From contig DASPLQ010000012.1 in NCBI GenBank assembly GCA_035627515.1, forward strand, positions 455,269 to 519,268: 64,000 nucleotides of DNA, written 5' to 3'. Each line of letters begins with the position of its first letter. Positions within the stretch are counted from its first letter, which is position 1. The stretch comes from Vitreimonas sp. Lineage in GTDB: Bacteria > Patescibacteriota > Microgenomatia > UBA1400 > PJMF01. The position numbers and the translations under genes are program-made. Below are positions 3,041-48,581 of the stretch, piece by piece. The notes under the pieces were generated by a model. It searched no databases, was not told where the DNA came from, and saw only the letters and a list, made by a program, of their open reading frames with translations.

Positions 3041-3059
3041 GCACGGTCGATTATACTGC

Positions 3060-3521
3060 TTAGCCTCTGATAGTTCGAGCACTGTCTAAGACATCATTTA
3101 AGTTATTGAATCCTAAAAATCTCACAATCAAGTTGAGGATCGCGTATGACGCTGCCACGATGATCAAGCCAATGACGGCGGCTGTCATTTTACTGCGGGC
3201 TTTTTCAGTGGCACCCTTGTCACCACCAGACATAATCCAGTCAAAAGCGGCTGAGATTAAATAGAAAAAGACCAGTAAAGCCGAGATTACCATCACTAAA
3301 CTCAGGACGGAGTTGAGCCAGCTGCCAAAATCGACGGCAAAACCTCTGGGTAACTCGATGTCACGTGTGCCTAAGTGAAGATTGCCGCGCTGGTTGGTGG
3401 TAGCAGCTGAATTACTAGCTTCACCTGCAGTCGTTTCGGTCGTAAGGTACAAAGCGGCGCCATCTTTTTTAGTGATGACTTGGCCGGGTTGGTTAATTTT
3501 AGTAGTAGTGAGTCCTGACAT
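3060..3521 (-). CDS. T4SS-type pilin-like protein, paralog 2.
   Basis: Core WIMSGGDKGATEKARSKMTAAVIGLIIVAASYAIL with two TM helices. Close paralog of 4146-4553 at both protein and DNA level. Confidence 0.6.
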   Translation of the reverse strand: MSGLTTTKINQPGQVITKKDGAALYLTTETTAGEASNSAATTNQRGNLHLGTRDIELPRGFAVDFGSWLNSVLSLVMVISALLVFFYLISAAFDWIMSGGDKGATEKARSKMTAAVIGLIIVAASYAILNLIVRFLGFNNLNDVLDSARTIRG

Positions 3522-3857
3522 GATAGTGTTTTCTTGATAACGCTTTAATGCGCTTTTGAAACATATTATACCAGATCAGAGAAGATCAAATTTTTTGAAT
3601 AGGGCGGAGAGTCATAAAGTTAAATTTTTCGGCAATTTACTCAAGAATCAAGGAAGTTGATCTTCATTGAGAGTGTGATTGAAATTCTCACTCAAGTCGC
3701 GTTACAAAATGTACATGTCTCAGGTTCAAATTTACATAGATGTTCAATGAAGGATGGTCAATTCTCTGTTATTCCTGAAAGTGAAGATTAATTTAATTTT
3801 CTTACATTTATGCAAGCTTAACGCAAGAATTGTCCGATATATTCAGAAGTTAGAGAT

Positions 3858-4076
3858 ATGCAAATTAACCACCACCCCCAAGATAAACGAATTGTTGCCA
3901 GCATTACTGAGTTAAGAGAAAACTTATTTGAGCTGGTACTGCGTGTGCATTATGAGGAAAGAATTGTGCTTATTAAACGTCATGGCAAAGTTATTGCCAT
4001 GCTGCGCTCATACAATGTTAATCCTTATCGACCGAGAATCCCACCTTGGTTTATTCATAAATACGGTTGGAAGTAG
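3858..4076 (+). CDS. Small protein with weak Phd/YefM-antitoxin-like features, sitting alone in a gap of the pilin array.
   Basis: 72 aa. SITELRENLFELVLRV...IVLIKRHGKVIAML resembles the Phd/YefM N-terminal fold. No partner toxin ORF seen downstream. Confidence 0.25.
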   Translation: MQINHHPQDKRIVASITELRENLFELVLRVHYEERIVLIKRHGKVIAMLRSYNVNPYRPRIPPWFIHKYGWK

Positions 4077-4086
4077 CCACACAACT

Positions 4087-4120
4087 AAAAACCCCGCCCG
4101 GTGCTAAGCACAAGGCGGGG
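4087..4120 (-). terminator. Intrinsic terminator for the minus-strand pilin gene 4146-4553. It lies between convergent genes.
   Basis: Perfect 7-bp GC stem CCCCGCC/GGCGGGG (4092-4098 and 4114-4120) with a 15-nt loop. On the minus strand it is followed by a T5 run (complement of A 4087-4091). Confidence 0.6.
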
Positions 4121-4145
4121 TATAGATTCACACTAAACTAATACA

Positions 4146-4553
4146 TTAGTTATTGTTAATAGTCTTAGGACTGTTCAAAACGTCGTTGAGGTCAGTGAAG
4201 CCTAAGAAGCGCAACACCAAAGTCAAGATAGCGTAGGAAGCAGCCAAAATGATTAAACCGATGACAGCAGCCGTAATTTTACTGCGAGCTTTTTCGGTTT
4301 GGCCTTTGTCACCACCTGAAGTGATCCATTCGATACCACCCCAGATTAAGTACATGAATACTAACAATGCTGCGATCACCATCACGAAACTCAAGACGGC
4401 GTTAAGCAACGTACCGAAGTCGGTAGCGAAACCGCGTCCGGGATCGACGTTGGTAGTAGCCAAGTCCAAAGCGAAAACAGTTCCAGCAGTCATGGCTAAA
4501 GCACTGACGCTAGCGGGAACAGAGAGGGCTAATTTTTGTAAAGTTTTTTTCAT
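4146..4553 (-). CDS. T4SS-type pilin-like protein, paralog 3. Start moved to the internal Met MKKTLQKL; the ORF track gives 4592.
   Basis: Signal peptide MKKTLQKLALSVPASVSALAMTAG. Core WITSGGDKGQTEKARSKITAAVIGLIILAASYAIL. Confidence 0.6.
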   Translation of the reverse strand: MKKTLQKLALSVPASVSALAMTAGTVFALDLATTNVDPGRGFATDFGTLLNAVLSFVMVIAALLVFMYLIWGGIEWITSGGDKGQTEKARSKITAAVIGLIILAASYAILTLVLRFLGFTDLNDVLNSPKTINNN

Positions 4554-4597
4554 TTTACTATTTCTCCTTATGTAGCTGGTTATATTATACATAACAA

Positions 4598-5197
4598 TTA
4601 ACAGGAATTAAAGTCATAGCCTGGTTTTTGTTTGGCAGCGCCACCAATACAATAACAAGGGTCATAGTGATTATATGATAAATGCTTATCAGCTTTGTTG
4701 CAGCGAACCATGGCTGCGCCATCGGTGCAGTAGCCACCCGCTCCACCATCGTTAGACATCTGCCCAACCGTGCAACCACCGCCACCACCAGTCCCACCGC
4801 TGCCTCCGGTTCCGCCGGTGCCAGTTGTAGCTGGAGCTACGATAGCTGCTGGGGTAGAAGACCCTCCCACACCAGCGCCAAAGTTAACAACATTAATGCC
4901 TAAGAAATTTTGTAATACTACAAACAGTGCGATGGTAGAGGCTAAAACGATGATGCCAATGATCGCGCCCGTGATTTTATTACGAGCTTTTTCAATTTGA
5001 CCTTTGTCGCCGCCGGCTGTGATCCAGGTGATCGCACCCCAGACTAAATAGAGGAGGACTAACAGGGCTGCCACCACCATCACGCCACTCAGGACACTGC
5101 CCAGAAAGGCTCCGAAACCGTCACCAGCTTTGGTAACACTGCCATCAACGCCCGGAAGAGCGCCTTGGCCTGCTTGGTAAAAATTGAGTTCATTCAT
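4598..5197 (-). CDS. T4SS-type pilin-like protein, paralog 4, with a Gly-rich and Cys-rich C-terminal extension.
   Basis: Core WITAGGDKGQIEKARNKITGAIIGIIVLAST, followed by a (GGT/GGS)n tract and a Cys-rich tail (CTVGQ...CTDG...CNKADKH...CYCIGG...NSC). Confidence 0.55.
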   Translation of the reverse strand: MNELNFYQAGQGALPGVDGSVTKAGDGFGAFLGSVLSGVMVVAALLVLLYLVWGAITWITAGGDKGQIEKARNKITGAIIGIIVLASTIALFVVLQNFLGINVVNFGAGVGGSSTPAAIVAPATTGTGGTGGSGGTGGGGGCTVGQMSNDGGAGGYCTDGAAMVRCNKADKHLSYNHYDPCYCIGGAAKQKPGYDFNSC

Positions 5198-5212
5198 AAT
5201 TACTATCTTATG

Positions 5213-5623
5213 TTAAATAGTTGGAATAGTTAATCGCAAGATATCGAAATTATTGCCAAAGAACGCCCGACTGATGAAGCCGATGATGAAAAACGATCCT
5301 ACCAATAACACCATACCAATGATGGCATTAGTGATTTTATCGCGGGCTTTTTGAATTTTGCCGCTATCACCACCAGCGTAAATCCACTCTAAACCACCCC
5401 AGAGGAAGTAAATAATCACAGCCAGGGCTCCGACCGCAATCAAACCGCGCCAAATGACGATGAAGTAGCTCATAAAAGTAGCGCCACTTTCAGCTTGAGC
5501 GGGGTTATTCCCTAATTGGCCGGTGACAGGATTTTTGATGCCTTCGAAAGCAGCTTGAACCAGAGAACTGGAACTCATAAATGACAAGATGGCGAGCAGT
5601 GGAGCTAAAAGATGTTTTTTCAT
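5213..5623 (-). CDS. T4SS-type pilin-like protein, paralog 5.
   Basis: Signal peptide MKKHLLAPLLAILSFMSSSSLVQA. Core WIYAGGDSGKIQKARDKITNAIIGMVLLVGSF. Confidence 0.6.
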   Translation of the reverse strand: MKKHLLAPLLAILSFMSSSSLVQAAFEGIKNPVTGQLGNNPAQAESGATFMSYFIVIWRGLIAVGALAVIIYFLWGGLEWIYAGGDSGKIQKARDKITNAIIGMVLLVGSFFIIGFISRAFFGNNFDILRLTIPTI

Positions 5624-5625
5624 GG

Positions 5626-6018
5626 TTAACGATTATTAATGATATCTAGTAATGATTGTCCTGGTGACAAGACATCAATGCCGACGATGCGGCCAATTAA
5701 GCCCATCACACCATAAGCAGCCACAATGATAATTAAGCCCATCACACCTTGAATCATTTGATCGCGAGCTTTACCCACCTTACCACTGTCTCCGCCAGCA
5801 GCAGTCCATTTGAAAGCACCCATCACAAAGTAAACGATGAAAAACAAGGCTGCTAACACAGTCAAAAAGCCTAAAATTTGTGACACAAATAACTCGAGGT
5901 TTTTCAACGCGGTTTCGCGACCGACAGCTGAGTCACCAAATTTAGTGATGTTGAAGTTATCAGCGGCAGGAGTAATGCCTTTTCCAAAGTCAGCAGTTTT
6001 GGCAAGTAACGTTAACAT
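5626..6018 (-). CDS. T4SS-type pilin-like protein, paralog 6.
   Basis: Core FKWTAAGGDSGKVGKARDQMIQGVMGLIIIVAAYGV with two TM helices. Confidence 0.6.
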   Translation of the reverse strand: MLTLLAKTADFGKGITPAADNFNITKFGDSAVGRETALKNLELFVSQILGFLTVLAALFFIVYFVMGAFKWTAAGGDSGKVGKARDQMIQGVMGLIIIVAAYGVMGLIGRIVGIDVLSPGQSLLDIINNR

Positions 6019-6019
6019 A

Positions 6020-6394
6020 TTACGGTCCTTTAATAATCGGATTCAAGATAAAGCCAGCATCATCGAACACAATCAAGCCAATTAAGGCCGCCACGGTGTA
6101 CGAAGTGACAATTAAAATTAAACCAATCACGCTCATGGTGAGACGCTCACGAACTTTGTTGTGAGCACTGGCATCACCGCTCGCAGTAATGTACTCGTAA
6201 CCAGCTAAGATAAATTGAAACATCACCCAGATACCTGCGATGACGGTGGCAACGCGAATAAGGGTGGACATAAAGGCTAAAATACCGATTTGATTACCGC
6301 CTGTGCCACTATAGAGTTGGACACCGGGTGGTGGGGAAACTTTACCAAAGACATTAGCAGGAGGAGCGGCGAGGAAAAAAGAAAAGAGCGACAT
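6020..6394 (-). CDS. T4SS-type pilin-like protein, paralog 7. Start moved to the internal Met MSLFSFF; the ORF track gives 6475, which overlaps the upstream gene.
   Basis: Signal-like N-terminus MSLFSFFLAAPPANVFG. Core YEYITASGDASAHNKVRERLTMSVIGLILIVTSY. Confidence 0.5.
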   Translation of the reverse strand: MSLFSFFLAAPPANVFGKVSPPPGVQLYSGTGGNQIGILAFMSTLIRVATVIAGIWVMFQFILAGYEYITASGDASAHNKVRERLTMSVIGLILIVTSYTVAALIGLIVFDDAGFILNPIIKGP

Positions 6395-6423
6395 GATGTG
6401 AATTATACCATTTTTTATGATGG

Positions 6424-6783
6424 CTAGAACATAATCTCTTGGCCAATGACAATTTCTACCACCTGAACTATCCAATAGGCAATAAACATGATGATATAAC
6501 CAGCCGCGGCGGTAGTGATAATGGATTTGGCTTCATCCTTACCTTTACTACCACTTTGAATAAACTTAAAGCCAGCATAAATAATCAACAAAAAGAGAAT
6601 AATGCCAGCTAACACAAACAAGTTGCTGACCAAAATATTGATGAGTTGAGTGGGTTGAGCGTAAACGCTTTTAACTGTGGCTTTGCCTGGACCAAGTGTC
6701 AAACAATTGCCCAGATCAATTCCCGAGACACCGGGGTCACACCCAGGGGCAGCAGCTAATAAACTTAACGTAGACAACAGCAT
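6424..6783 (-). CDS. T4SS-type pilin-like protein, paralog 8. It is the first gene of the array.
   Basis: Signal peptide MLLSTLSLLAAAPGC. Core FKFIQSGSKGKDEAKSIITTAAAGYIIMFIAYWIVQVVEIV. The C-terminus resembles the orphan pilin at 16159-16599. Confidence 0.55.
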   Translation of the reverse strand: MLLSTLSLLAAAPGCDPGVSGIDLGNCLTLGPGKATVKSVYAQPTQLINILVSNLFVLAGIILFLLIIYAGFKFIQSGSKGKDEAKSIITTAAAGYIIMFIAYWIVQVVEIVIGQEIMF

Positions 6784-32816: not shown

Positions 32817-33713
32817 ATGTCAACTGCTGCCTCGGCTGCCGGCCGTCTAAAAGGCCTGCTCAAAACTTCCTTTGCTACCTCTGGTGGAGCTACTAACGTA
32901 CTGCAATTAGAACCCATTCCCGGTGACCCGCCTGTACCTGGATTAGTGAGTGATACTTTATTAAGTACCACTTTTCCCCCGGTACCCATTGGCCTTGGCA
33001 ACAATTCTACTGTGAGTTCGGCTCCTCCTGAGCTTTCTACTCAAGATAAGGTGGAACTTTTTGATCAGGTTCTCAGTGAGATTGAACAACAGCTACCTGT
33101 AGGTGCCCCTCCAGCTGTTTCCGCTGTTAGCCCTGATGCCATTGCCCAGTCAGTTTCGACAGTGCCAGTCACCGCCACACCAGCTGCCCCAGTTAACCCT
33201 GTAGCTTCTGATCTAACTACTCAAGTAGCCGCCCCGCTAACCTCACCTACTCCTCAGCCAGTGCCGGCTGCAGTGGCTCCGCAAGCCGTGCCTTTAGCCG
33301 TGGAACAATCAGTAGCCGCCGCCAGTCTTAATCCCGCTTATCCTACTTCTAGTATCAAAGAAGCTTTGCCATCCATGGTGACTCTCGAAGCACCGAGTTT
33401 TGATTTGCCAGTAGGTGTACAGAGTGTGGAGCATGAACACAGTCCTGAGCTGGGTCCTGAGATCGAGGGCTTTTTACATAAAGTGGAAGATCATCATGAG
33501 CAGCAGCCACATGAAATTGTCGTGGCTGATGGCTCTCAACTGCTGCCAACGCAAAAATATATGGCTCAACCTGTGATTGTGTTACCCGTCACCCCAGAAG
33601 TTGAACAAGAAGGCCAAAGTAAAAACACCACCTTTAGTGTCCGCTGGCTGGTAGAATTCAGTCATAAAATTATGAAGATGTTTAGTGGAAAGGTGATATA
33701 TAGAAGTAATTAA
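32817..33713 (+). CDS. Pro/Ala/Val/Thr-rich low-complexity hypothetical protein.
   Basis: Compositionally biased (PAVSAVSPDAIAQSVSTVPVTATPAAPVNPV...). Its stop overlaps the start of the AGTAA repeat. Confidence 0.35.
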   Translation: MSTAASAAGRLKGLLKTSFATSGGATNVLQLEPIPGDPPVPGLVSDTLLSTTFPPVPIGLGNNSTVSSAPPELSTQDKVELFDQVLSEIEQQLPVGAPPAVSAVSPDAIAQSVSTVPVTATPAAPVNPVASDLTTQVAAPLTSPTPQPVPAAVAPQAVPLAVEQSVAAASLNPAYPTSSIKEALPSMVTLEAPSFDLPVGVQSVEHEHSPELGPEIEGFLHKVEDHHEQQPHEIVVADGSQLLPTQKYMAQPVIVLPVTPEVEQEGQSKNTTFSVRWLVEFSHKIMKMFSGKVIYRSN

Positions 33714-33792: not shown

Positions 33793-36129
33793 ATGCTTGA
33801 TCCAAATCTAATGCTTGCTATGTTGATTTCTTGGTTTTTCACAGCCTTGTGGATACTATTAGCCTTGGTGTTGATTGGTGCTTTGTGCTATGTCTTGTTT
33901 CAGTTTTATCGACATCGCAATCGGGAAGAGTATGCCTTAGATTTTGTGACCTTGATGGTCAGATTACCTAAGGATAATGAAATCAAAATTGATGCCGCTG
34001 AACAAATGTTTGCTGGCTTATACTCACTCAAAAAAACGGGCTGGTTTAGTTGGTTCAAGAATGAAGAAGTGTTCTCGTTTGAAATTGTGGCTCTCAAAGA
34101 AAAGATTGCTTTTTATGTAAATTGTCCACGCAAAATCCGCGATTTAGTTGAGAAACAAATTCACGGTGCTTATCCTAATGCGGAAATTAAAGAAGTAGAT
34201 GAAGTGAATATTTTTAGCGAAAAAGGCAAAGTTGCTTTTACGAGTGTTAAAACTGAAAAAGCAATTTATCTGCCCATCAAAACCTACAAAGATTTGCCAA
34301 CCGATGGTTTATCACTTTTGACTTCAGCATTATCTAAAATGGGCGAGGGTGAAGGAGCAGTGGTGCAAATCTTATTACGTCCAGAGGGTAGAGGTTGGCA
34401 GAAAAAAGGTCGTAATTATATTCAAAAAGAAAAGAAACGTGAGGCCGATCCCGAAAAAGCAACCTATGGTCATGATCCGAAAGAAATGGAAGCTATTGGT
34501 GCCAATGTTGAGAAACCAGGTTTTAGAGTTAGCATCAGAGTAGTAGTGTCATCTCCTAATGAGTACACTGCCGAGTCACATTTAAATAACATTGTCGGTG
34601 CTTTTGCTCAATACACTTCTGCCTACAATAACTTCAAACAAGTGGAACATATTTTCTTAAAGCCACTTTTTATGATTGATTTCATTTATCGTTACATGCC
34701 GATGATGAACATCAACACTTCCATTTTAAATATTGAAGAATTAGCGACACTATTTCACTTTCCCAATAAAACTGTTGAGACGCATCACATTCAGTGGCTA
34801 AATGCTAAAAATGCTCCAGCTCCAGATAAAATTCCTACTACCGGCATGTTGTTGGGTGTATCGGCGTATCGTGGCGAAAAACGTGAGGTCCACATGGATC
34901 TCAATGACCGTCGTCGTCACATGTACATCATTGGAAAAACGGGTACCGGTAAATCAGAGTTTTTAAAAGAGATGATTTTGCAGGACATTGAAGCTGGACA
35001 TGGCGTATGTGCGATCGACCCCCACGGTGAGTTTATTGAAGATATTTTGCAACTGATGCCGCCAGAGCGGGCTGAAGACGTGATTTATTTCAATCCTTCA
35101 GATCTTGATCGGCCGATGGGCTTGAACATGATGGAGGCAGATACCGAAGAACAAAAACACTTTGTGACCAGTTCCATCATCGGTTTGATGTACAAGCTAT
35201 ACGACCCGCACCGCACAGGTATTATCGGTCCGCGGTTTGAGCACGCCATCCGGAATGCGATGTTGACGATCATGAGTAAACCAGGCACCACCTTTATCGA
35301 GTTAGTGCGGTGTTTGACCGATAGTAAATATGTGGAGGAGTTATTGCCTTTTGTTAAAGATCCAGTGGTGCGTCGCTACTGGACTGACCAAATTGCCCAA
35401 ACGTCTGATTTTCACAAATCAGAAGTCTTGGACTACATCGTTTCTAAGTTTGGCCGGTTTGTGACCAATAAAACTATGCGGAACATCATTGGTCAGCCGT
35501 CCAGTGCTTTTAACTTCCGGCAAGCCATGGATGAAAAGAAAATCATTCTTTGTAACTTATCCAAAGGTATCTTAGGTGAAGAAGACGCCAAATTTTTAGG
35601 TCTGATTTTAGTGCCTAAAGTATTGACTGCGGCTATGAGTCGGCAGGATATTGGCATGGACCAGCGCCACGACTTTTTCTTATACGTGGACGAGTTCCAA
35701 AACTATGCTACCGAAGACTTTGCAGTCATTTTGTCAGAGGCTCGGAAATACCGGCTCAGTTTAATTGTCGCTAACCAGTTTATCGGTCAGATTGACGAAG
35801 AGATTAAAAATGCTGTTTTTGGTAACGTCGGTTCGATTGTATCTTTCCGGATTGGTGTTCCCGACGCCAACTTCTTGCAACACGAGTTTAGCCCCACCTT
35901 TAATGAAGGTGACTTAACTAACATCGAAAAATATCACGTCTACATGAAGACCATCGTCAACAACGAACCGGTTCCGCCATTCAGTATGTCACTTGAAAAA
36001 GATATGGACCAAGTCAAAGCTCGGATGAACCCCAAAATGGCTGAGATGATCAAGCAACTCAGTCGTCTCAAATACGGCAAAGATCGCGAGAGTGTAGAAG
36101 CTGAGATGAATGTGCGAGCGAAGTTGTAG
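33793..36129 (+). CDS. Membrane-anchored T4SS P-loop ATPase (VirB4/TraC- or VirD4-like; DUF87/FtsK-HerA superfamily).
   Basis: N-terminal TM helices (LISWFFTALWILLALVLIGALCYVLF). Walker A IIGKTGTGKSEF followed by AIDPHGEF. Walker B FFLYVDEFQNYAT. 778 aa. Confidence 0.6.
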   Translation: MLDPNLMLAMLISWFFTALWILLALVLIGALCYVLFQFYRHRNREEYALDFVTLMVRLPKDNEIKIDAAEQMFAGLYSLKKTGWFSWFKNEEVFSFEIVALKEKIAFYVNCPRKIRDLVEKQIHGAYPNAEIKEVDEVNIFSEKGKVAFTSVKTEKAIYLPIKTYKDLPTDGLSLLTSALSKMGEGEGAVVQILLRPEGRGWQKKGRNYIQKEKKREADPEKATYGHDPKEMEAIGANVEKPGFRVSIRVVVSSPNEYTAESHLNNIVGAFAQYTSAYNNFKQVEHIFLKPLFMIDFIYRYMPMMNINTSILNIEELATLFHFPNKTVETHHIQWLNAKNAPAPDKIPTTGMLLGVSAYRGEKREVHMDLNDRRRHMYIIGKTGTGKSEFLKEMILQDIEAGHGVCAIDPHGEFIEDILQLMPPERAEDVIYFNPSDLDRPMGLNMMEADTEEQKHFVTSSIIGLMYKLYDPHRTGIIGPRFEHAIRNAMLTIMSKPGTTFIELVRCLTDSKYVEELLPFVKDPVVRRYWTDQIAQTSDFHKSEVLDYIVSKFGRFVTNKTMRNIIGQPSSAFNFRQAMDEKKIILCNLSKGILGEEDAKFLGLILVPKVLTAAMSRQDIGMDQRHDFFLYVDEFQNYATEDFAVILSEARKYRLSLIVANQFIGQIDEEIKNAVFGNVGSIVSFRIGVPDANFLQHEFSPTFNEGDLTNIEKYHVYMKTIVNNEPVPPFSMSLEKDMDQVKARMNPKMAEMIKQLSRLKYGKDRESVEAEMNVRAKL

Positions 36130-36131
36130 AA

Positions 36132-37835
36132 ATGCAAGAAAAGCTATTGCCCTCTACTAATATAGAAAAAAGTTGGCAAGAAACACTTAAATCAGATGAA
36201 TTTTTACCTGCTGAAAGAGAATTGTTAACACTCCTATATGACGAAGTAATTAATGGAGAGCCTGAGTTAAGGATTTATACCTACGACGTTTTCATAGATA
36301 AATGTAGGTATTTGAATATTGATCCAATAGTAATTCAGGAAAAAGCTATGAGGCTTTTTCCACAATATGAAATTCAAGCACTTTTCAAACATCTTCCCAA
36401 AGGATTAAAGATTCGAGCGAAAGAAGAACTCTACCATGATGGTACTTCTATTGCTGGGACAATGTTTTTTATAAGAGAATTAAATGAATCTAATCGCCTA
36501 TATCAACGGGATGGTAAAGATTTTGTCAAGCTAAGCCGAGCTGAAGTTAAAAAAATTATAGAAACTGAACTTCCCAATAATAAACCCACTTTTATTAACG
36601 AAACTCTAGGATGGGTGACAGCTGAATCAATTCAAGGATACTCTAACGGTGTTCGCTTATCACAAATAGATGGTGAAGAGACGGACGTTAGCATTGATGA
36701 TACCACTTTTTTTATCATTGAAGGAGCAGATCATAAATTAGCTCAGCGAAGACCACGAGAGATTTATTTTGGTCAATCAGTGCAGGTTTGGGATGCCGAT
36801 ATTCAAAGATGGGTAAGAGGTAGAATTACCGATAGAAAAAATGTAGATAAAATACTTGTTCAATTGGATGAACCAATTGAGAAAACAAATTATTTTGGTG
36901 AACCAAGTCAAGTTAAAGATGCTGAAATTTGGATCGGAGACGTTGCAATCAGAGGATGGAGCGCGGATAAAAAACTACCTTCCCTTGGTTCATCCATGTT
37001 TGAAAGAGAGGAATATCATTTTTTAAATATTGATTTAACTGCTGAACAAGAAAAGGTGCCTTTTGAGCAAATCCCTAAGGAGTTCATACCCGGTACATTG
37101 ATTCGTTTTCCAGGAGGCGGCATAGGTTTAGTAGAAAGAACTAACTCACAAGGTCAGAGTTTTGTTGATGGTGTAAAAGCTGGTGGACAACCATCCTTAG
37201 AAGGAGAATCTGTCAATTGGATGAATTTAGAGCAGTTGCCGATTATTTTGGAATCTACAGAATTTGAGAAAGAAAATAGTGAGTTAAGAAACAGGCGTGT
37301 CAAAATTAATATCAGATCTTTAGAAGGTGAAGAAAAACTTTCATTTCGACAAAGATTTATAACACGTTTACGAAATAAATTTATGGGGCTTTTCTCAGAA
37401 AAGCAGAATAAAAATCAGAGAATCATGAAAGTGGAAAAATTAGTGAAACTAAATAATGAGCCATACGTAATTTTACGATCATTGCCTGTTTTGTTAAGCG
37501 AAGGAGGTAATAAGAATCAGCGTTTATATTATGAGCTGCCATTGCGGGTTTTCAATGAGTTGATAGTAAAGGGGGAATGTGAGCTGAGTTCTAAAGATGT
37601 TACAGAGTCACTTCGCTATTATTTTCCAGATCAATACAAAGATATTATCAATAATATTGATAATTATTTTGGTAGTGTTTATGCAGAGGTGAAGTTGAAA
37701 AACAACCGAGTTATTCTTAAGAAACAATCAGTTTATTTTAATTGCTTGCCTTTTGGTGTATATCTCATTTTCCCCAATGAAGATATTCCGCGCTTAATTC
37801 CTTTAGAGAAGATAGAAAGTATTGAAATCTTATAA
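36132..37835 (+). CDS. Hypothetical soluble protein (567 aa) translationally coupled to the T4SS ATPase. It is compositionally AT-rich.
   Basis: Starts 2 nt after the ATPase stop. No TM and no recognisable motif. Visibly lower GC and Lys/Asn/Ile/Glu-rich compared with neighbours. Confidence 0.4.
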   Translation: MQEKLLPSTNIEKSWQETLKSDEFLPAERELLTLLYDEVINGEPELRIYTYDVFIDKCRYLNIDPIVIQEKAMRLFPQYEIQALFKHLPKGLKIRAKEELYHDGTSIAGTMFFIRELNESNRLYQRDGKDFVKLSRAEVKKIIETELPNNKPTFINETLGWVTAESIQGYSNGVRLSQIDGEETDVSIDDTTFFIIEGADHKLAQRRPREIYFGQSVQVWDADIQRWVRGRITDRKNVDKILVQLDEPIEKTNYFGEPSQVKDAEIWIGDVAIRGWSADKKLPSLGSSMFEREEYHFLNIDLTAEQEKVPFEQIPKEFIPGTLIRFPGGGIGLVERTNSQGQSFVDGVKAGGQPSLEGESVNWMNLEQLPIILESTEFEKENSELRNRRVKINIRSLEGEEKLSFRQRFITRLRNKFMGLFSEKQNKNQRIMKVEKLVKLNNEPYVILRSLPVLLSEGGNKNQRLYYELPLRVFNELIVKGECELSSKDVTESLRYYFPDQYKDIINNIDNYFGSVYAEVKLKNNRVILKKQSVYFNCLPFGVYLIFPNEDIPRLIPLEKIESIEIL

Positions 37836-37848
37836 AAAAAGACTAACA

Positions 37849-38226
37849 TTAAAAATTTGCGTCAGCAGGCGTCTGAGCGGCAGCCTCATACTCTTTAATC
37901 ACCTGTTGGCAGTATTGATAGCGAGCGTACTCAAAGGCTTTTTGGTGGATGGGTTGTTTGTGTTCACCGACTTCCACACTGGAACCAAGGACGTTGCCCA
38001 CGTGTGAACCGACTTCTTGTGAACGTGTAGAAAGTATCTGGAGCTGTGAACCAGCACTGCTACTAAGTTGCGCAACTGGGAGCTTGTCGCGGAATTGAAA
38101 AAGCGCCGTTTGGGCGTTTACCATCACTTGAGCTGGCAACACACCCCGATTTAAAGCGGTATACGCACCCACGCCTAAGATCACGAGTATCAAGCACAGT
38201 AATAATAAAGCTTTAACCATTTTCAT
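37849..38226 (-). CDS. Small secreted or anchored hypothetical protein.
   Basis: N-terminal signal anchor MKMVKALLLLCLILVILGVGAYTAL. 125 aa. Confidence 0.35.
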   Translation of the reverse strand: MKMVKALLLLCLILVILGVGAYTALNRGVLPAQVMVNAQTALFQFRDKLPVAQLSSSAGSQLQILSTRSQEVGSHVGNVLGSSVEVGEHKQPIHQKAFEYARYQYCQQVIKEYEAAAQTPADANF

Positions 38227-40207: not shown

Positions 40208-40618
40208 TTAAGTTGTTAGATAATGCGGCGGGCGGTTACCAGCTTGATACGATAATATTTTATTTAGTATTTTCAAAATTTCGGTGAGATTGCTTTCTAA
40301 GAATGTAAATTTTTCAGTTTTAATGTAATTGAGATGATGAGAAATAATAAGTTGGGTTTCTAATTCAACTGCTGAAGCGTAAGCATAGCGTAGGAACTGA
40401 TGATATTCAGCCATCTTTTTTGATCGACCGCACCCTTCGGCAATATTAGAAGCTACTGACACCGATGCTCTTCGCATCTGTGAGGTTAATCCAAACATTT
40501 CAGTTCTTGGATATACATTTGTAACTGCATAAATATCGAAACAGAGCTGCATAGATTTCTGCCAAACAATTAGGTCTTTATACGATTTAACTTTGGGATA
40601 AGTAGACATTAAAGGCAA
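40208..40618 (-). CDS. Four-helix-bundle protein (23S rRNA intervening-sequence protein family).
   Basis: FGLTSQMRRASVSVASNIAEGCGR plus helical repeats typical of this family. Confidence 0.55.
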   Translation of the reverse strand: MPLMSTYPKVKSYKDLIVWQKSMQLCFDIYAVTNVYPRTEMFGLTSQMRRASVSVASNIAEGCGRSKKMAEYHQFLRYAYASAVELETQLIISHHLNYIKTEKFTFLESNLTEILKILNKILSYQAGNRPPHYLTT

Positions 40619-42413: not shown

Positions 42414-42486
42414 GAGCCGATAGCTCAGCTGGTAGAGCAGAAAGCTTATACCTTTCCGGTCGGGGGTTCGAGTCCCTCTCGGCTCA
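42414..42486 (+). tRNA. tRNA with anticodon UAU. Formally tRNA-Ile(UAU), decoding AUA.
   Basis: Manual fold: acceptor GAGCCGA/TCGGCTC (7 bp, perfect). D-stem GCTC/GAGC with loop AGCTGGTA. Anticodon stem GAAAG/CTTTC with loop cTTATAc (U33, anticodon TAT, A37). Variable CGGTC. T-stem GGGGG/CCCTC with loop TTCGAGT. Discriminator A. CCA not encoded. Confidence 0.7.
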
Positions 42487-42561
42487 CACATTCACTTTTC
42501 CCTTCATACAAAAAACCCTGCAGTGTTACCACCGCAGGGCTCAATTTCAAAACTATTCAGC

Positions 42562-43491
42562 TTATAAAATCAGTAAGGCAAGGACTGCTCCACCGACAAT
42601 GGCGAGTAAGCCTGGGCCGATGAACTTCTTGAAGGTATCAGCTGCACCTGAGCGAGGTAACTCACTTGGTAAGGGCTCGGTTCCATCAACGGTTTGAGTC
42701 GGCACGTAGGTGGTTGTAGAAGGTGGCGTACAAGAAGCACTTTCTGGATTAGACTCTAAGCGACAGACGCGACCTTGGTTGGTGTCATAACAGGCATGAT
42801 CAGGATTACTACAGTCACTATCAGTACCACAGGCTTGGTTACAGTAAGCGGTACTACAGCTGGCGCTGGTTGGATTAGTAGCTAAGCGACAGTTCCCGTT
42901 GTAACAGATGAAGTTACTATTGGCTTGAGCACATTGTGTGTTGTTCTGACAGGTACTGTTACAAGAGTAGGTTGTAGTTGTCGTTGGTGATGGCGATGGG
43001 CTCGTACTTGGTGAAGGACTTGGGCTCGTGCTTGGTGAAGGTGAAGGGCTAGTACTCGGTGATGGACTAGGACTGGTGCTCGGTGATGGGCTGGGTGAGG
43101 TAGATGGTGAGGGACTTGGAGAACCAGCCACTACAAATGATAAGGAACAATTGGCAGTTTGAACCACTGCAGCTTGAGGACGTGAGTCTGGAGCAGTAGG
43201 AGCGACCGGAGTTTGATCCACGCGTTGGCGGATGGCAGTTAAGACACCGGCCATGGATAACACAAAGAACAGGGTTAAGCCCAACACAGTCATCACTGAC
43301 CGAGCATCTATTCCGAAAATTTTGCGAGGTTGTTTACCAGCAGCAGGGAAGCCCTTGAAGTTGGTACCACCGGCATTACCACCACCAGCGCCACTAGCCG
43401 TCATGACTGGTGTGGCAGGAGCTACCGGAGCAGCGCCAGTAGTAACTGGTTGTTTGGTGTAGCTAGTTGGTGTTGGTGTCGCGTTAATCAT
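42562..43491 (-). CDS. Surface protein with an N-terminal signal anchor, a (SPSPSPST)n linker, two Cys-rich modules and a C-terminal hydrophobic anchor preceded by LPRSG.
   Basis: TM VMTVLGLTLFFVLSMAGVLTAI. Repeat SPSPSTSPSPSPSTSPSPSPSTSPSPSP. Modules YSCNSTCQNNTQCAQANSNFICYNGNCRLATNPTSASC and NQACGTDSDCSNPDHACYDTNQGRVCRLESNPESASC. Tail ELPRSGAADTFKKFIGPGLLAIVGGAVLALLIL. Confidence 0.5.
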   Translation of the reverse strand: MINATPTPTSYTKQPVTTGAAPVAPATPVMTASGAGGGNAGGTNFKGFPAAGKQPRKIFGIDARSVMTVLGLTLFFVLSMAGVLTAIRQRVDQTPVAPTAPDSRPQAAVVQTANCSLSFVVAGSPSPSPSTSPSPSPSTSPSPSPSTSPSPSPSTSPSPSPSTSPSPSPTTTTTYSCNSTCQNNTQCAQANSNFICYNGNCRLATNPTSASCSTAYCNQACGTDSDCSNPDHACYDTNQGRVCRLESNPESASCTPPSTTTYVPTQTVDGTEPLPSELPRSGAADTFKKFIGPGLLAIVGGAVLALLIL

Positions 43492-43507
43492 GATTGGTAT
43501 CCATTAG

Positions 43508-46500
43508 TTATGGTGTTACCCCTGTCCCAAACGGGTTTTCATATGAGTGACAACTGGTATCATCTTGAGTGGTACAGATTCGGCATTGTGCAGCGTGCAG
43601 ACCAGTCTTGGTGATCGTGTAATTATTAGACACTCGACCAGTCATCTGTAAGTTGACGAGCACACCATCTGGCTCTACGATCCGGGCTTGGTACTTACCA
43701 CTTTGAGTGATGGCAGCTACTTCGCCACAAGTAATGCGGATGGCGTTGCCCATGGCAGGGTCTTGAGTAGCTGGAGCACTTGGGTTGGTTACATTAGTCA
43801 TTTGAATTGACAAACATTGTGGTCCGACTGGTGCCTGACAACTACCACTGGTTGGATTCTCAGGTAAGCGGCAGCGTTTGCCGGTGGCGCCCGTGTCGAT
43901 ACACTTCAGGCGGGAGTCAGCAGTGGCACATTGAGCATCATTTCCACATTCACTGTTACAGAAGTACCCAGGTGGTAAGGATGGAGGAGGACTCTCCTGA
44001 GTTACTGTTACTGGAGGTATGTTAGGCGCTGGAGGCTGGATCACTGGAGGTTGAGTACTACAGTTCGCAGCACATTGGTAGATAGTCATGGTGCCTTCAC
44101 CTGGTTTGCCCAGAGCACATTCTTTTCGACCATCGCCGTTGACATCTTTACAAACGTAATCATTAGGATTATCGCGGGTGGTACAAGAGTACACAGTGGA
44201 GTTGAAGCCACCACCGTCAGTGCGAGTATAAGAACCACTGCCGTTGAAGGTACCGCGACAGTCACATTGAATGACACCACAGCCGCTTGGCAGTTGACTC
44301 TTCATGTTCGCAGAGTTTGGTAAAGGTCCATTAACAAAGCCAGAGCCAGTGAATTTCCCGGTATTACAAGCACCGCCGAGACTACCATCGCAAGCATAAC
44401 AAGCATATTCACAAGTTTCGCCAACACTACCACCATAGGTAGGTGTCCCACCAGCAGAACTAGCACAATAACCAGCTCCATCACCAGTAAGATCACAGCG
44501 ACCACTAGCGCACTGATTACTCGTAGAACAGAGACAGTTGCCACCACGGCCGGTCGTAGCACTACAGTTAACATTATTACCAGTAGTGTTAGTGCCCCCG
44601 CTAACAACTCTTACACACTCACCATTTTGATAATTAGAACCGTTAGCACAAGCGCGAGTCAAAGCACCAGTTTGGGAATGATAACACTCCCAACTATTAG
44701 CTTTATTATCACTAAAAGTTGCTCCTTCACACACATTTCCTTTTTTACAACCACCGCTTGTCCAGGCACAGCCAGGATAAGCATTACAGGCAGTAGCACC
44801 AGAATCAAAGTTTCCACAGTTGCCGTTTGGATCACTGCCAATAGGTGTATTACATTCACCATTAGTCATCACCCAACCTTCTTTACATTGGAACTCAATT
44901 GATTTGCTTGAGCCTGTGCCTACAGTACAGCGTTCTTTGTTAGGACCACCGTCACTGGTGCCAGAGTCACGGGTACAAGCTTTTATTTCTTTACAAGAAT
45001 TGTCTTCAAAAATACATCCAGACCGTGCGTTACAAGCGCTGGCGCTGGTATCGTAGTTACCACATGAGCCTTGGGGATCTTGGCTGGTGGCTACACAACT
45101 CCCTGCATTATTTACATAACCAGTCTTACATTGTGCAGTAGTGGCACCGGATGATTGATGAACACAGAGTTCACCATTTGCAGGTGCGTTTAAGCCAGAA
45201 ATTGAAATAGTTTGTTTAGTACAGTAAGGTAAACCATTGGGAGCAGTACCTGTTGGATTAAGTTCGACGTTATTACACTCTTTAGGTAAAGTAGAACTAA
45301 TAGAGAAGGTGTGCTTAACTCCAGCAGTGCCGCCATTTTTACCAGTTTGAGTACACTCACAAGTAGTGTCATTGAGTTTAGTAGCTCCACCAGGACAAAC
45401 TACGTTTACAGCTTGGGCACAAGTTTGCCCATTAGTAGCCACTTTACCTGTGTTAGGACCAGAACTACAAATACAGCCATTTGGATTAGTACAAGTAGCA
45501 CCCTCTGGGATGAGACTTCGAGCATTAGGATCAACGCCGCCAGTGGCACTGCTGCGACAAACTCCGCCATTAGACATAATCTTGCCCGCATCTAATCCAC
45601 CAATACATTTACAGCCGCCAGCATTGTTACACGTTTCGCCAGAGTTAATTTCCTTAATAGTGGCAGGTGCGGTGGAAGTTGCAGCTTTACAACTAGTTCC
45701 ATAACCAATCACTTTGCCTTTATCTGGGCCATCTAAACACTCACATCCAGGAGTTTCTAAACACTGTCTGCCAGCTAAGATACCAATTCGCCCTGAAGGA
45801 GTGGTGGTGCCACCAGTTCCTGTGCTAGGAGGAGTTGTACCGCCACCGCCACCACCACAAGTGGCGCCGTTAGCAATTGAACCACGCGTGTTGTTAGCGC
45901 TACACAAACAGCCCCCGGCATTGTTACACACAGCGCCAGGACCTAAATCACCTGCACATTGATACGTACAGGAAGCGGCACAAACGCCCCATTGACCATC
46001 GGCGTTACCACTACAGTTACCAGTTTTACATTCTAAGACACCGCCGCGACAACAAGCGCCGCCAATATCTACACTATTAGGGGTGCCTGAGGCTGGATTA
46101 CAAGCTGAGCCAACAGCGCCACCGCCACCACCCGTAGCTGGAGGAGTTGTTGTACCACCTGTAGCTGGAGGAACTGTGCCACCACAAGCGACACCAGTAT
46201 TAGTCCACCAACCATTACAATTTGATCGATCACAGCGCCACATGGTCTTAGAATCAGTATTACAACGACTTTGACCTGTAGCTACGCCATCACAATCATT
46301 GGGATTACCACAACCACCGCCACCCCCACCGTTGTCAGCAGGAGGAGGTGGCGGCGGAGCGGGAGGGGATCCACACGTACCAGTTTCCTGCCAAGAGCCA
46401 TTATTACAACGAAAGGTTTTTCCTAAAGCAGTATTACAATGTTCTGAACCTGAAGTTGCCCAGCCATCACATTTAGCGCCAGCAGCTTGGTTCACAATAT

Positions 46501-46720
46501 TAGTGTCATTTTGAGTCAAATAAAAGCCTGCGCCTGCACCTAAGAGGACTAAGACTAAAACAGTCACACCGGCGAAGATCTTCCAATATTTTTTTAGTGC
46601 CGCAAAGCGACTAGGAGTTTTGTTAAAGGAGCTGCCCATACTACTAGTAGGGGTGCTTGAAGAGGGAGTGCTTGGCATTCCGGAAACTGAGTTTGGAGCA
46701 GCGGTAGTGCTGTTTAACAT
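43508..46720 (-). CDS. Giant (1070 aa) Cys-, Gly- and Thr-rich secreted protein with internal repeats. Likely a surface adhesin or structural protein.
   Basis: N-terminal TM anchor YWKIFAGVTVLVLVLLGAGAGFYL. More than 100 Cys residues. Recurring CNNAGGC[KL]C...G.[IV]..NG..C units. C-terminal module YFCNSECGNDAQCATADSRLKCIDTGATGKRCRLPENPTSGSC shared with 42562-43491. Confidence 0.55.
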   Translation of the reverse strand: MLNSTTAAPNSVSGMPSTPSSSTPTSSMGSSFNKTPSRFAALKKYWKIFAGVTVLVLVLLGAGAGFYLTQNDTNIVNQAAGAKCDGWATSGSEHCNTALGKTFRCNNGSWQETGTCGSPPAPPPPPPADNGGGGGGCGNPNDCDGVATGQSRCNTDSKTMWRCDRSNCNGWWTNTGVACGGTVPPATGGTTTPPATGGGGGAVGSACNPASGTPNSVDIGGACCRGGVLECKTGNCSGNADGQWGVCAASCTYQCAGDLGPGAVCNNAGGCLCSANNTRGSIANGATCGGGGGGTTPPSTGTGGTTTPSGRIGILAGRQCLETPGCECLDGPDKGKVIGYGTSCKAATSTAPATIKEINSGETCNNAGGCKCIGGLDAGKIMSNGGVCRSSATGGVDPNARSLIPEGATCTNPNGCICSSGPNTGKVATNGQTCAQAVNVVCPGGATKLNDTTCECTQTGKNGGTAGVKHTFSISSTLPKECNNVELNPTGTAPNGLPYCTKQTISISGLNAPANGELCVHQSSGATTAQCKTGYVNNAGSCVATSQDPQGSCGNYDTSASACNARSGCIFEDNSCKEIKACTRDSGTSDGGPNKERCTVGTGSSKSIEFQCKEGWVMTNGECNTPIGSDPNGNCGNFDSGATACNAYPGCAWTSGGCKKGNVCEGATFSDNKANSWECYHSQTGALTRACANGSNYQNGECVRVVSGGTNTTGNNVNCSATTGRGGNCLCSTSNQCASGRCDLTGDGAGYCASSAGGTPTYGGSVGETCEYACYACDGSLGGACNTGKFTGSGFVNGPLPNSANMKSQLPSGCGVIQCDCRGTFNGSGSYTRTDGGGFNSTVYSCTTRDNPNDYVCKDVNGDGRKECALGKPGEGTMTIYQCAANCSTQPPVIQPPAPNIPPVTVTQESPPPSLPPGYFCNSECGNDAQCATADSRLKCIDTGATGKRCRLPENPTSGSCQAPVGPQCLSIQMTNVTNPSAPATQDPAMGNAIRITCGEVAAITQSGKYQARIVEPDGVLVNLQMTGRVSNNYTITKTGLHAAQCRICTTQDDTSCHSYENPFGTGVTP

Positions 46721-46898: not shown

Positions 46899-48581
46899 TT
46901 ATTCGCAAGAAATTTCCTGAGCTTCTTCAATCTGTTGAGCCAACCAGAAACTCCACGCACCAGCTAGGATGAAGAAGAATCCCCCGACCAACAATGCTAA
47001 GGTTGTTTCAGTAGAACCTGAGACCGGAATGGCACTCTTCGTAGAAGGAATACTCGTTCGGCCGGAACTAGTAGCAGTGCTCGATTTAGTAGCCGTTTGG
47101 GTACTCTTAGTAGCCGTGCCGCCGATGGGGAAAGGATTACCAGAACCAAAAGGTGAAGGGCTGGGCGAAGGTGAAGCTTTAGCACTACTCGTCGAGGTTT
47201 TAGTGGTGCCACCAGTGCCAGGGGTACTAGCTTGAGCTAAGGTCGTTTTTGGTTGCACTGTGAAGGTTTGAGTCTTAGTCACTTCTTTACCTGTGGCAGG
47301 ATCGGTATACGAATAGGTGACAGTATGTTCACCAGGCTCTAACTGTTGAGAAAGAGTGGCGATATCAAGAGAGAAGCCACCGTTACCATCGGCCACCAGT
47401 TCTTCATAAATTTGGGTTTCAGAATGAACTTCAATTTTGACACGGACACCAGGGGCAGCTTTACCAGTGATCACTGGAGTGGTGGTGGTTACGATTTGCT
47501 CAGTGGTTTTTTGCAAGTCCACTACGGTAGCAGTAGTAGTAGAAGCAGAAGCCGAACTACTCGTACTGACTGTGGCACTGCCGCTACTGACACGAGTGAC
47601 AGTTGAACTGCCACTAGAAACTGCAGTAGTTGCAGCGGCACCGCTGGCATTGGCTAAATCAGACAAACCGCCACCTTGAGTACTGACAATGGGACTAGGT
47701 GAGGGCAAGATGGCTGGCTCGGCGCTAGCCATGGGCGTAGTACCCGTTGGCGTACCATTCGCTGTGGTCATGGTATTAATAGGGGCAGCGGGAGCAACAG
47801 TGATAGCTTGACCAAAGGTGATGTTAGGGACAGGTTGAGCTTGAGCCACGGTCGTGTTTAATTGAGAGGTTTGGGTGGTTGAGGGGCCTTGGACAGTAAT
47901 ATTCAGATTATCAGTATCGGTGACTGTAGCGTAGCCCGAACCATCAGCTAAGCGAGCATTTGACAACGGCACGGCCCAACTACATGAAGATTTGACGAGT
48001 GAAGACATCTCGCCCATACTCGGCATCGAAACATACACCACGCTGCCTTCAGCCGGGGTGCCAGCTTCAGTGTTGACACAACCATACACTGTTTTAGCCG
48101 CGGAAGGTGTGCCACTGCGCTTGGCAGTCGTGATGGTAAACGGAGCGCCATTATTATCAAATGTCGCACCGGAACCGGTGCCTAAAGTGTAGTAGTAAGT
48201 GACACCAGGCTCCAGACCGCGGACGGTAACGTGATGAAGGGGATAGCTGCCCACATTACCGGAGAGTTGATCACGATCGTCGCTAGCTTGGGATTTAAGA
48301 CTCTTACTGTCTTTACCATATTTAATAAAACCCGCTGTACTCTCATCGGTTAAAAATGAAACAGTAAAACTGGTATCAGATACATTGGAAACGCGAATAT
48401 TTTTAGGTGTAGTCTGTGGGGTAGCTCGAGGGGAAAAATTTAAGCCATTGCCACTACTAAAGAAAACCAAACCAGCGCCGAGGGCGACCACTAACACAAA
48501 CAACCCCAGCAGGGTAGGAATTTGCTTTTGCAAAAACGACTTTTGAGTAGGCAGCGTCGGCATAAAAAACACAGGCATCAA
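46899..48581 (-). CDS. Surface protein with an N-terminal TM, FN3/PAP-N-like beta domain, Ser/Thr-rich stalk and a C-terminal TM anchor.
   Basis: IRVSNVSDTSFTVSFLTDESTAGFIKYG...HHVTVRGLEPGVTYYYTLG (FN3-like). Long S/T/A-rich low-complexity region. C-terminal LALLVGGFFFILAGAWSFWLAQQ. Confidence 0.4.
   Translation of the reverse strand: MMPVFFMPTLPTQKSFLQKQIPTLLGLFVLVVALGAGLVFFSSGNGLNFSPRATPQTTPKNIRVSNVSDTSFTVSFLTDESTAGFIKYGKDSKSLKSQASDDRDQLSGNVGSYPLHHVTVRGLEPGVTYYYTLGTGSGATFDNNGAPFTITTAKRSGTPSAAKTVYGCVNTEAGTPAEGSVVYVSMPSMGEMSSLVKSSCSWAVPLSNARLADGSGYATVTDTDNLNITVQGPSTTQTSQLNTTVAQAQPVPNITFGQAITVAPAAPINTMTTANGTPTGTTPMASAEPAILPSPSPIVSTQGGGLSDLANASGAAATTAVSSGSSTVTRVSSGSATVSTSSSASASTTTATVVDLQKTTEQIVTTTTPVITGKAAPGVRVKIEVHSETQIYEELVADGNGGFSLDIATLSQQLEPGEHTVTYSYTDPATGKEVTKTQTFTVQPKTTLAQASTPGTGGTTKTSTSSAKASPSPSPSPFGSGNPFPIGGTATKSTQTATKSSTATSSGRTSIPSTKSAIPVSGSTETTLALLVGGFFFILAGAWSFWLAQQIEEAQEISCE

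Follow-up and report, generated by a model that had tools for sequence, protein, structure and literature searches.

The stretch of DNA analyzed here (64,000 nucleotides of contig DASPLQ010000012.1, hereafter the window) carries two adjacent open reading frames (ORFs) on its plus strand, one encoding a membrane-anchored P-loop ATPase and the other, directly 3′ of it, an AT-rich protein of 567 residues designated ORF567. The features of this pair are as follows, with the evidence for each in parentheses.

33793 to 36129, plus strand: ATPase, a membrane-anchored P-loop protein of 778 residues with a transmembrane (TM) helix, a DUF8128 N-domain, and a DUF87/TrwB-like domain (ORF, Pfam, Foldseek).
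33802 to 33912, plus strand: N-terminal hydrophobic anchor of the ATPase, residues 4 to 40 (Kyte-Doolittle scan; helix 4 to 40 in the AlphaFold2 [AF2] model).
33913 to 34827, plus strand: DUF8128 alpha/beta N-terminal domain of the ATPase, approximately residues 41 to 345 (precomputed PF26449 on all homologues; modeled secondary structure).
34933 to 34956, plus strand: Walker A motif GKTGTGKS of the ATPase, residues 381 to 388 (translation; invariant in 27 homologues).
35017 to 35031, plus strand: DPHGE box of the ATPase, residues 409 to 413 (translation; invariant in 27 homologues).
35686 to 35697, plus strand: Walker B motif VDEF of the ATPase, residues 632 to 635 (translation; invariant in 27 homologues).
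36132 to 37835, plus strand: ORF567, an AT-rich gene of a rare family encoding a predicted soluble multidomain protein of 567 residues (composition, homologue search, AF2, check of 81 loci).

Translation and hydropathy analysis agreed with an initial annotation, made from the sequence alone, on the coordinates of both ORFs, the 2-nucleotide (nt) gap between them, the TM anchor, and the GKTGTGKS, DPHGE, and VDEF motifs. The ATPase gene ends with a TAG stop codon (36127 to 36129), which is followed by the dinucleotide AA and then by the ATG of ORF567 at 36132, and no ORF of at least 80 residues is found on the opposite strand of this region. The Kyte-Doolittle scan revealed only one hydrophobic stretch in the ATPase, that of residues 4 to 40. 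The basic stretch RHRNRE follows this anchor and suggests, according to the positive-inside rule, that the ATPase domain faces the cytoplasm.

Comparison of the ATPase with Pfam returned DUF87/HerA (PF01935; E value of 3.7e-9, 37.5 bits for a cutoff of 23.2) and TrwB_AAD_bind (1.1e-7, 31.5 bits for a cutoff of 20.5, over profile positions 9 to 98 of 387 only), and the matches above cutoff were confined to the Walker A region. FtsK_SpoIIIE and TraG-D_C matched weakly, the latter below its cutoff, and Pfam yielded neither a T4SS-DNA_transf match nor one of VirB4 type (CagE_TrbE_VirB or AAA_10) at an E value of ≤0.01. The NCBIfam TraD, VirD4-like, and TrbC models scored 30 to 44 bits for cutoffs of 250 to 800 (e.g., 43.7 versus 366), CedD was also weak, and the sole VirB4 model matched in NCBIfam was NF045975 (VirB4_plasma), at 21.6 bits for a cutoff of 590. 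Sequence matches in the Protein Data Bank (PDB) were HerA, TrwB, and DotL, which matched the C-terminal ATPase part. More than 7,000 homologues combine DUF8128, DUF87, and TrwB_AAD_bind, and their named sources are Pacebacteria, Woesebacteria, Microgenomates, or “Patescibacteria group.” The best 120 of these align at 77 to 83% identity with 100% coverage, all with PF26449, PF01935, and PF10412, and the ATPase alignment (A2) has a mean column identity of 83%. A literature search on DUF8128 found no paper. Judging from domain architecture and full-length alignment, the ATPase is the Microgenomatia orthologue of a Patescibacteria-wide DUF8128 plus DUF87/TrwB-like family, and it belongs to the superfamily comprising VirB4, VirD4 (the type IV coupling proteins [T4CPs]), and HerA-FtsK. 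The source record (a contig of about 1.41 Mb; locus tag VD999_02580) is labeled “Vitreimonas sp.,” and several relatives are labeled Pseudomonadales, Limisphaerales, or Methylococcaceae. Since gene content and homologues all point to Patescibacteria (Microgenomatia), these labels appear to be taxonomic mislabels in public records.

The AF2 model of the ATPase was of moderate quality (pLDDT of 67, pTM of 0.46) and comprised a long N-terminal helix, an alpha/beta domain (approximately residues 51 to 320), a RecA-like domain, and an all-helical block (residues 452 to 566) between Walker A and Walker B. In a Foldseek search of the PDB with this model, full-length TrwK/VirB4 of plasmid R388 accounted for the top 13 chains (E values of 1.7e-13 to 7e-9, about 815 to 894 aligned columns), followed by HerA (3.6e-8), DotL (1.4e-7), Cag-beta, TrwB (~1e-6), and the C-domain of VirB4 alone (3.5e-6). 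The best structural matches were thus ATPases of type IV secretion systems (T4SSs), as anticipated by the initial assignment to the VirB4/VirD4 superfamily, and no family outside the T4SS ATPases could confidently claim the protein. As targets consisting of the ATPase domain only score alike, it must be the N-domain that puts full-length VirB4 ahead, so that DUF8128 is, according to the model, probably similar to the N-terminal domain of VirB4. The likeness implied with TrwK/VirB4 (PDB 8rtd and 7o43; about 800 to 870 aligned columns) is that of an N-terminal alpha/beta domain joined to a C-terminal RecA-like ATPase, at a TM-score of ~0.3 and with a model of moderate quality. The two proteins differ in that their identity is 10 to 13% and no CagE_TrbE_VirB/AAA_10 match is found in the ATPase. 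Furthermore, VirB4 anchors through VirB3, whereas the window ATPase has its own N-terminal TM helix, and no VirB3, VirB6, or VirB8 is encoded beside it or in the conserved synteny.

The coupling proteins and their relatives (TrwB, VirD4, DotL, and Cag-beta) share with the ATPase an N-terminal membrane anchor and the helical block between Walker A and Walker B, and their TM-scores to the model, normalized to the target, range from 0.41 to 0.49. However, the helical insertion also occurs in VirB4 C-domains and does not discriminate T4CPs from VirB4. Canonical T4CPs usually have two TM helices and lack a domain of ~300 residues, whereas the ATPase has one long hydrophobic stretch and carries DUF8128 between its anchor and its ATPase domain. 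The linkage of T4CPs to a relaxase or a T4SS channel locus was not found within the window either, as no relaxase or transfer genes adjoin the ATPase. A third likeness is to HerA and the MADS component mad8: DUF87 scored above its cutoff, HerA structures were matched at E values of ~1e-8, and the mad8 model of PADLOC matched residues 364 to 674 at 2.3e-16, along with several HerA models. In contrast to these proteins, the ATPase is membrane anchored, and its gene belongs to the syntenic core, not to the patchily distributed genes of defense islands. No HerA-type partner (NurA, Sir2, or DUF4297) or other MADS gene was found near it, and PADLOC matches among its neighbors were limited to generic MacB.

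The genes that flank the pair on each side are the following.

32817 to 33713, plus strand: upstream low-complexity protein of 298 residues, rich in Pro, Ala, and Val (directly 5′ of the ATPase in 55 related loci).
37849 to 38226, minus strand: convergent protein of 125 residues with an N-terminal TM segment or signal anchor (TM residues 1 to 30), at the far edge of the putative ORF567 insertion (homologue in 42 loci).

Gene order around the ATPase is identical in six contigs and reads Pth, a small ORF, GH3, a small ORF, Lgt, DUF192, a protein of 231 to 298 residues without assigned function, the ATPase, a convergent membrane protein of 111 to 128 residues, MacB, ABC, and MFP. Across 59 GTDB species (loci L012 to L070), identity of the ATPase to the window protein ranges from 65 to 85% with a median of 78%, compared with medians of 42% for Lgt, 44% for DUF192, 60% for MacB, 41% for the upstream protein, and 33% for the small membrane protein. 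The upstream protein of 298 residues has no match in Pfam or NCBIfam; its C-terminal motif, SVRWLVE(W/F)S.K.MKMF.GKVIYR, is strongly conserved in the alignment, and we regard this protein as a candidate for the true partner of the ATPase. The convergent small gene lies 9 to 55 bp from the ATPase stop codon in approximately 20 of the 42 loci having a homologue. In loci of Falkowbacteria type (L071, L073, and L074), the ATPase gene is fused and encodes 861 to 864 residues, with the low-complexity upstream gene retained, and two of them (L073 and L074) carry a conserved gene of 194 codons, unrelated to ORF567, 3 nt 3′ of the ATPase. In three further loci, labeled Giovannonibacteria, Paceibacterota, and Saccharibacteria (L076, 5848 to 8942; L077, 4651 to 7653; L078, 102 to 3045), a gene of 411 to 433 codons lies directly 5′ of an ATPase gene of 560 to 603 codons that lacks the N-domain. 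We read these pairs as N-domain and ATPase each encoded by a gene of its own, the upstream one being a putative DUF8128.

A recent survey catalogued 5,713 VirD4-like T4CP homologues in 2,918 Patescibacteria genomes, of which only 148 are near virB4; such a homologue was nonessential in S. epibionticum, and exaptation was suggested as possible (Quinonero-Coronel et al. 2025, PMC12102498; see also PMC12857230). The window ATPase shares with the catalogued proteins a near-universal presence in Patescibacteria, a location away from virB4, the absence of a relaxase, and an annotation as “type IV secretion system DNA-binding domain-containing” or “DUF87.” By these features it appears to be of the same kind as the orphan VirD4-like T4CP homologues and is a candidate member of the 5,713. 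Absent from the survey are the DUF8128 N-domain, the fixed order of Lgt, DUF192, the upstream protein, and the ATPase, and the extreme conservation of the latter (78% versus 42% for Lgt). Very strong purifying selection acts on the ATPase gene, which belongs to the chromosomal core and is not part of a mobile conjugative element. The initial view that a transfer or secretion motor is shown to be encoded here went too far, given a core gene in housekeeping synteny whose homologues are mostly unlinked to virB4 and may have been exapted (PMC12102498).

ORF567 differs from its surroundings in composition. Its GC content is 34.5%, whereas the remaining 61 ORFs of the window average 44.6% (z = -3.0), and its GC content at third codon positions (GC3) is 25.5% versus 42.5% (z = -3.0), both values being the lowest of the 62 ORFs, while the first codon position is near normal (GC1, z = -0.9). 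Among 21 long genes, it also deviates most in codon usage, with a relative synonymous codon usage distance of 4.41 versus 2.2 to 3.5 for the others. The AT richness seen by eye in the initial annotation is therefore borne out by calculation, and the composition is truly aberrant. The enrichment in Lys, Asn, and Ile noted at the same time is real in direction (22.0% versus a mean of 15.9%; rank 60 of 62), but it is mild (z = 1.7), and the ATPase itself reaches 20.2%. As also predicted, ORF567 lacks TM segments by hydropathy and any known motif: no match was found in Pfam, NCBIfam, PADLOC, PHROGs, or the PDB by sequence or profile. A word-indexed search of 5.8 billion proteins retrieved only ORF567 itself, and HMMER, run exhaustively against 1.84 billion representatives, recovered ten full-length relatives at 29 to 37% identity and one at 24%, all of them metagenomic proteins from very small clusters. 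Members of the family can be aligned over their whole length and share the conserved motifs AEPIQGY, RRPRELYPG, LPELGS-FE, and LPFGIW. No close relatives were detected in phage and plasmid collections by tblastn or in IMG/VR and JGI metagenomes by pattern scans, and the profile-pattern scan of metagenomes returned one contig, of an already known type. An open frame of 567 codons at this composition would arise by chance with a probability of ~4e-19, and together with the full-length homologues and a confident predicted fold, this indicates that ORF567 is a real gene. It is a new member of a previously undescribed and very rare family.

The homologues with readable context occupy varied positions, and none lies beside a DUF8128 ATPase. 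GreA and a beta-lactamase-like gene accompany three of them, together with Lon in L008 and with a response regulator in L009 and L010. The others are found in the order MurE, FemAB, ORF, and TrmD (L087), in the order NusA, IF2, ORF, and S15 (contig P0129), and next to two PIN/PhD toxin-antitoxin pairs and LytR (L088). Their GC contents (36 to 42%) and GC3 values (24 to 35%) match those of their host contigs (33 to 41% GC), whereas ORF567 is 10 points below its own host. The only host contig that was typed belongs to Microgenomatia by its SerRS (closest to Microgenomates, Blackburnbacteria).

The AF2 model of ORF567, built from an alignment of 11 sequences, reached a pLDDT of 82.6 and a pTM of 0.77. 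From the N to the C terminus, it shows a helical domain, a small alpha/beta domain, several small beta-barrels, a variable helical insert, and an alpha/beta region. Foldseek returned weak, domain-level matches only (E values of 1e-4 to 1e-1, TM-scores of ≤0.2), to Spt5 KOW, Agenet arrays, and the Tudor domains of SETDB1 and 53BP1, and viral structures gave no meaningful match. These Tudor/Agenet/KOW arrays (Spt5 KOW, AGDP3, SETDB1, and 53BP1), in which small SH3-like barrels stand in tandem, are thus the sole structural matches. The pattern RRPRE-Y-G--V-VW----W--G and a 42-residue repeat of ORF567 fit such barrels; the repeat is visible in the DNA as 40 nt at 73% identity spaced 126 nt apart, consistent with duplicated barrels, and BLAST searches for paralogues and internal repeats found nothing else. 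However, E values for the arrays are only 1e-4 to 1e-2 and identity is 10 to 15%, none of the 11 family members has a Tudor, Agenet, or KOW match in Pfam, and the N-terminal helical and C-terminal alpha/beta domains are unmatched, so that the overall architecture is undescribed. Invariant residues of the family include Q69, Q168, R175, R207, E210, W227, D239, E291, and N460, among which no catalytic set is recognizable. The model portrays a soluble multidomain protein built around putative SH3-like (Tudor/KOW-like) barrels. Because of these barrels and of the recurring GreA, NusA-IF2-S15, and TrmD neighborhoods, we tentatively picture ORF567 as a nonenzymatic-looking cytoplasmic binding or adaptor protein for nucleic acid or for a component of transcription or translation.

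We then turned to the junction between the ATPase and the convergent gene. A tblastn search with all 11 family members found a relative of ORF567 in none of 81 related ATPase loci. In approximately 17 of the 81, the gap between the ATPase and the convergent gene is filled by 0.4 to 4.5 kb of unrelated genes, mostly ordinary looking and with host-like GC content. With approximately 20 tight and 17 filled gaps, the junction behaves as a synteny breakpoint at which genes come and go. The idea of a specific integration hotspot was rejected, as the genes found there are mostly ordinary ones of host-like GC content. As a possible insertion scar around ORF567, only a direct repeat matching at 11 of 14 nt (36156 and 37842) came to light, and it was judged to be a chance occurrence in AT-rich DNA. 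Most likely, ORF567 was acquired horizontally and fairly recently from a Microgenomatia donor of lower GC content. Composition, distribution, and junction all favor this reading as a recently acquired cargo gene, one of two proposals in the initial annotation; the other, a T4SS substrate recruitment or regulatory factor, fails the synteny check, with 0 of 81 loci and no homologue of readable context beside such an ATPase.

As for expression, the nearest promoter-like site on the plus strand (35623 to 35652) lies ~480 nt 5′ of the junction, only 13 nt separate the ORF567 stop codon from the convergent gene, and no terminator-like site was found between the ATPase and ORF567 or between ORF567 and the convergent gene. 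The 2-nt gap, together with the absence of an intervening promoter or terminator, makes read-through transcription from the ATPase likely, and ORF567 is probably expressed in this manner. Coupling by termination and reinitiation is possible; complementarity to Shine-Dalgarno sequences is weak genome-wide and the region upstream of ORF567 is unremarkable, which argues neither for nor against it. Gaps this short are usual in this compact genome and do not point to a functional link between the ATPase and ORF567.

Taken together, we consider it probable that the locus combines a conserved core ATPase with an acquired cargo gene at a variable junction, the two being neighbors by accident rather than a functional pair. 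By analogy with related motors, the ATPase would most likely form a ring at the inner membrane face and spend ATP on driving a polymer, either DNA or protein, or on energizing an envelope machine, in a core process that is presumably envelope or transfer related. ORF567 would have arrived as cargo from lower-GC Microgenomatia, inserting precisely between the closely spaced genes for the ATPase and the convergent small membrane protein, and would then be expressed through the ATPase transcript. Several observations weigh against this account or parts of it. Around ORF567, there is no integrase, adjacent tRNA, inverted repeat, or clear target-site duplication that would mark an insertion, and it is from spacing only that cotranscription and translational coupling are deduced. 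The best single HMM score of the ATPase in any library, that of mad8, is to a defense component, and since the TM-scores of its model to PDB chains are all ≤0.3 on the query, the precedence of VirB4 over VirD4 and HerA is indicative without being conclusive. Finally, L008 and L009 probably derive from one ancestral locus, which makes the neighborhood evidence for ORF567 thinner than it appears, and the functional guess for this protein draws on weak fold matches (TM-scores of ≤0.2) and few neighborhoods.

Other explanations of the locus were weighed against this one. The ATPase might not be a coupling protein at all but a self-anchored VirB4-like paralogue that Microgenomatia exapted into an essential nonconjugative housekeeping translocase, which would act with the upstream low-complexity and downstream small membrane proteins. 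We hold this to be unlikely, though with a real share of the probability; if true, it would explain why the ATPase is conserved above Lgt or MacB. The further idea that ORF567 is a newly captured client or regulator of that motor in one lineage is less likely. ORF567 could also be a stand-alone conflict gene (anti-phage defense, anti-defense, or selfish) unrelated to transcription or translation. Its sporadic and very rare occurrence, the 24 to 37% identity between members, its foreign AT-rich composition, its insertion at a variable junction, the two toxin-antitoxin pairs adjoining the L088 homologue, and an AT-rich bAvd/23S-IVP-like insertion 2.4 kb away would all fit. Yet no PADLOC, PHROG, phage, or plasmid match was found, the protein has neither a motif of the nuclease, ATPase, TIR, or Sir2 type nor a conserved group of catalytic residues, and most homologues sit among housekeeping genes, so that we view a conflict role as rather improbable.

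T4CP adaptors are typically lineage specific and without known domains, as in the DotL/IcmSW type, and this counts in favor of ORF567 being a lineage-specific adaptor, substrate, or regulator of a T4CP-like ATPase, with the 2-nt spacing securing stoichiometric coexpression. The same-strand arrangement with no close promoter and no terminator between the genes agrees with such a role, as does the 194-codon gene at a 3-nt gap in Falkowbacteria-type loci, which shows that the position can host coexpressed genes. We nevertheless find it quite unlikely: ORF567 is missing from every one of the 81 related loci and its own homologues are never near such an ATPase where context is readable, its foreign composition indicates a recent arrival, the ATPase is ~80% conserved with or without it, and tight spacing is the norm of the genome, as the 13 nt to the convergent gene illustrate. 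A two-gene defense system, with a HerA-like ATPase and ORF567 as its effector, would account for the mad8 score (2.3e-16), the several HerA models, the DUF87/HerA match in Pfam, and the HerA chains among the good Foldseek matches, and in HerA defense systems the partner of the ATPase is indeed a variable effector (structures of Sir2-HerA and DUF4297-HerA were matched). It is highly improbable for an ATPase that is universal and syntenic in Microgenomatia at ~78% identity and in a housekeeping context, the opposite of a patchy defense gene. Moreover, the protein bears an N-terminal TM anchor, full-length VirB4 surpasses HerA by five orders of magnitude in E value, the PADLOC matches of the neighbors are generic MacB only, and ORF567 occurs in no other locus. 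Equally hard to credit is that ORF567 is ancestral at the site and was lost from the sampled relatives, its AT richness being due to the makeup of the protein or to a local bias in mutation. Among the sampled relatives, even the closest share only ~83% identity in the ATPase, no truly close genome being available, and the typed homologue-bearing contig is also from Microgenomatia, which leaves some room for ancestry. However, loss would be needed in all 81 loci and dozens of species, the shortage of GC is most pronounced at third codon positions (GC3 z of -3.0 versus GC1 z of -0.9) and is thus not an effect of protein composition, and the homologues reside at different loci in genomes of matching GC content.

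The ATPase family is present in nearly every Patescibacteria genome, and its role is an acknowledged open question, the T4CP homologues being unlinked to the essential T4SS. The extreme conservation of the ATPase, its fixed envelope-related synteny with the upstream partner candidate, and its probably VirB4-like N-domain could offer starting points for experimental work on those few Patescibacteria that can be cultivated. ORF567 is of little present import as one more rare hypothetical protein; its case illustrates that, where genomes are compact, the closeness of two genes does not argue for functional coupling, and that Microgenomatia can exchange AT-rich orphan genes.

Elsewhere in the window, T4SS genes are represented by one array.

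2630 to 6783, minus strand: array of 8 tandem VirB2-like T4SS pilin genes (PF18895).

The eight genes encode proteins of 119 to 199 residues that match the T4SS_pilin family with E values of 1.3e-9 to 1.7e-5, seven of them above the gathering score. The array lies 27 kb from the ATPase and contains the only T4SS genes of the window. T4SS partners are thus visible in it, and the initial annotation, which noted that VirB6/VirB8-like ones are not, missed them. VirB2-like pilin arrays of this type have been reported for Microgenomatia and Saccharimonadia (PMC12102498 for Microgenomatia). No VirB4 or second P-loop transfer ATPase is encoded within the 64 kb, and the remaining T4SS genes may lie just outside the start of the window. 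Adjoining the array (60 to 2600, minus strand) is a gene for an N-terminally anchored, Cys-rich protein of 846 residues without a Pfam match, whose SLT-like C-terminal motif GPMQINVPVC suggests that it may be a VirB1-like cell wall hydrolase.

A second AT-rich insertion is found 2.4 kb from ORF567, in the form of a gene for a 136-residue four-helix-bundle protein similar to 23S-rRNA-IVP/bAvd (40208 to 40618, minus strand; PF05635, 2.8e-36; GC content of 35.3%, GC3 of 28.5%). It is wedged between the genes for the ABC ATPase and a HlyD-like adaptor, is not found at that position in L001 to L006, and has no reverse transcriptase in view nearby. ARAGORN and Rfam pointed to a single RNA gene in the window, a tRNA-Ile with anticodon TAT (42414 to 42487, plus strand). 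Beyond it, three consecutive genes (42562 to 46720 and 46899 to 48581, minus strand) encode large proteins of 309, 1,070, and 560 residues that are rich in Thr, Ser, Pro, and Ala, with an unusually high second-position GC content of 0.57 to 0.65. The 309- and 1,070-residue proteins are membrane anchored and lack Pfam domains, the 560-residue protein contains fn3, Big_13, and purple-acid-phosphatase-N domains, and all three are probably surface proteins.

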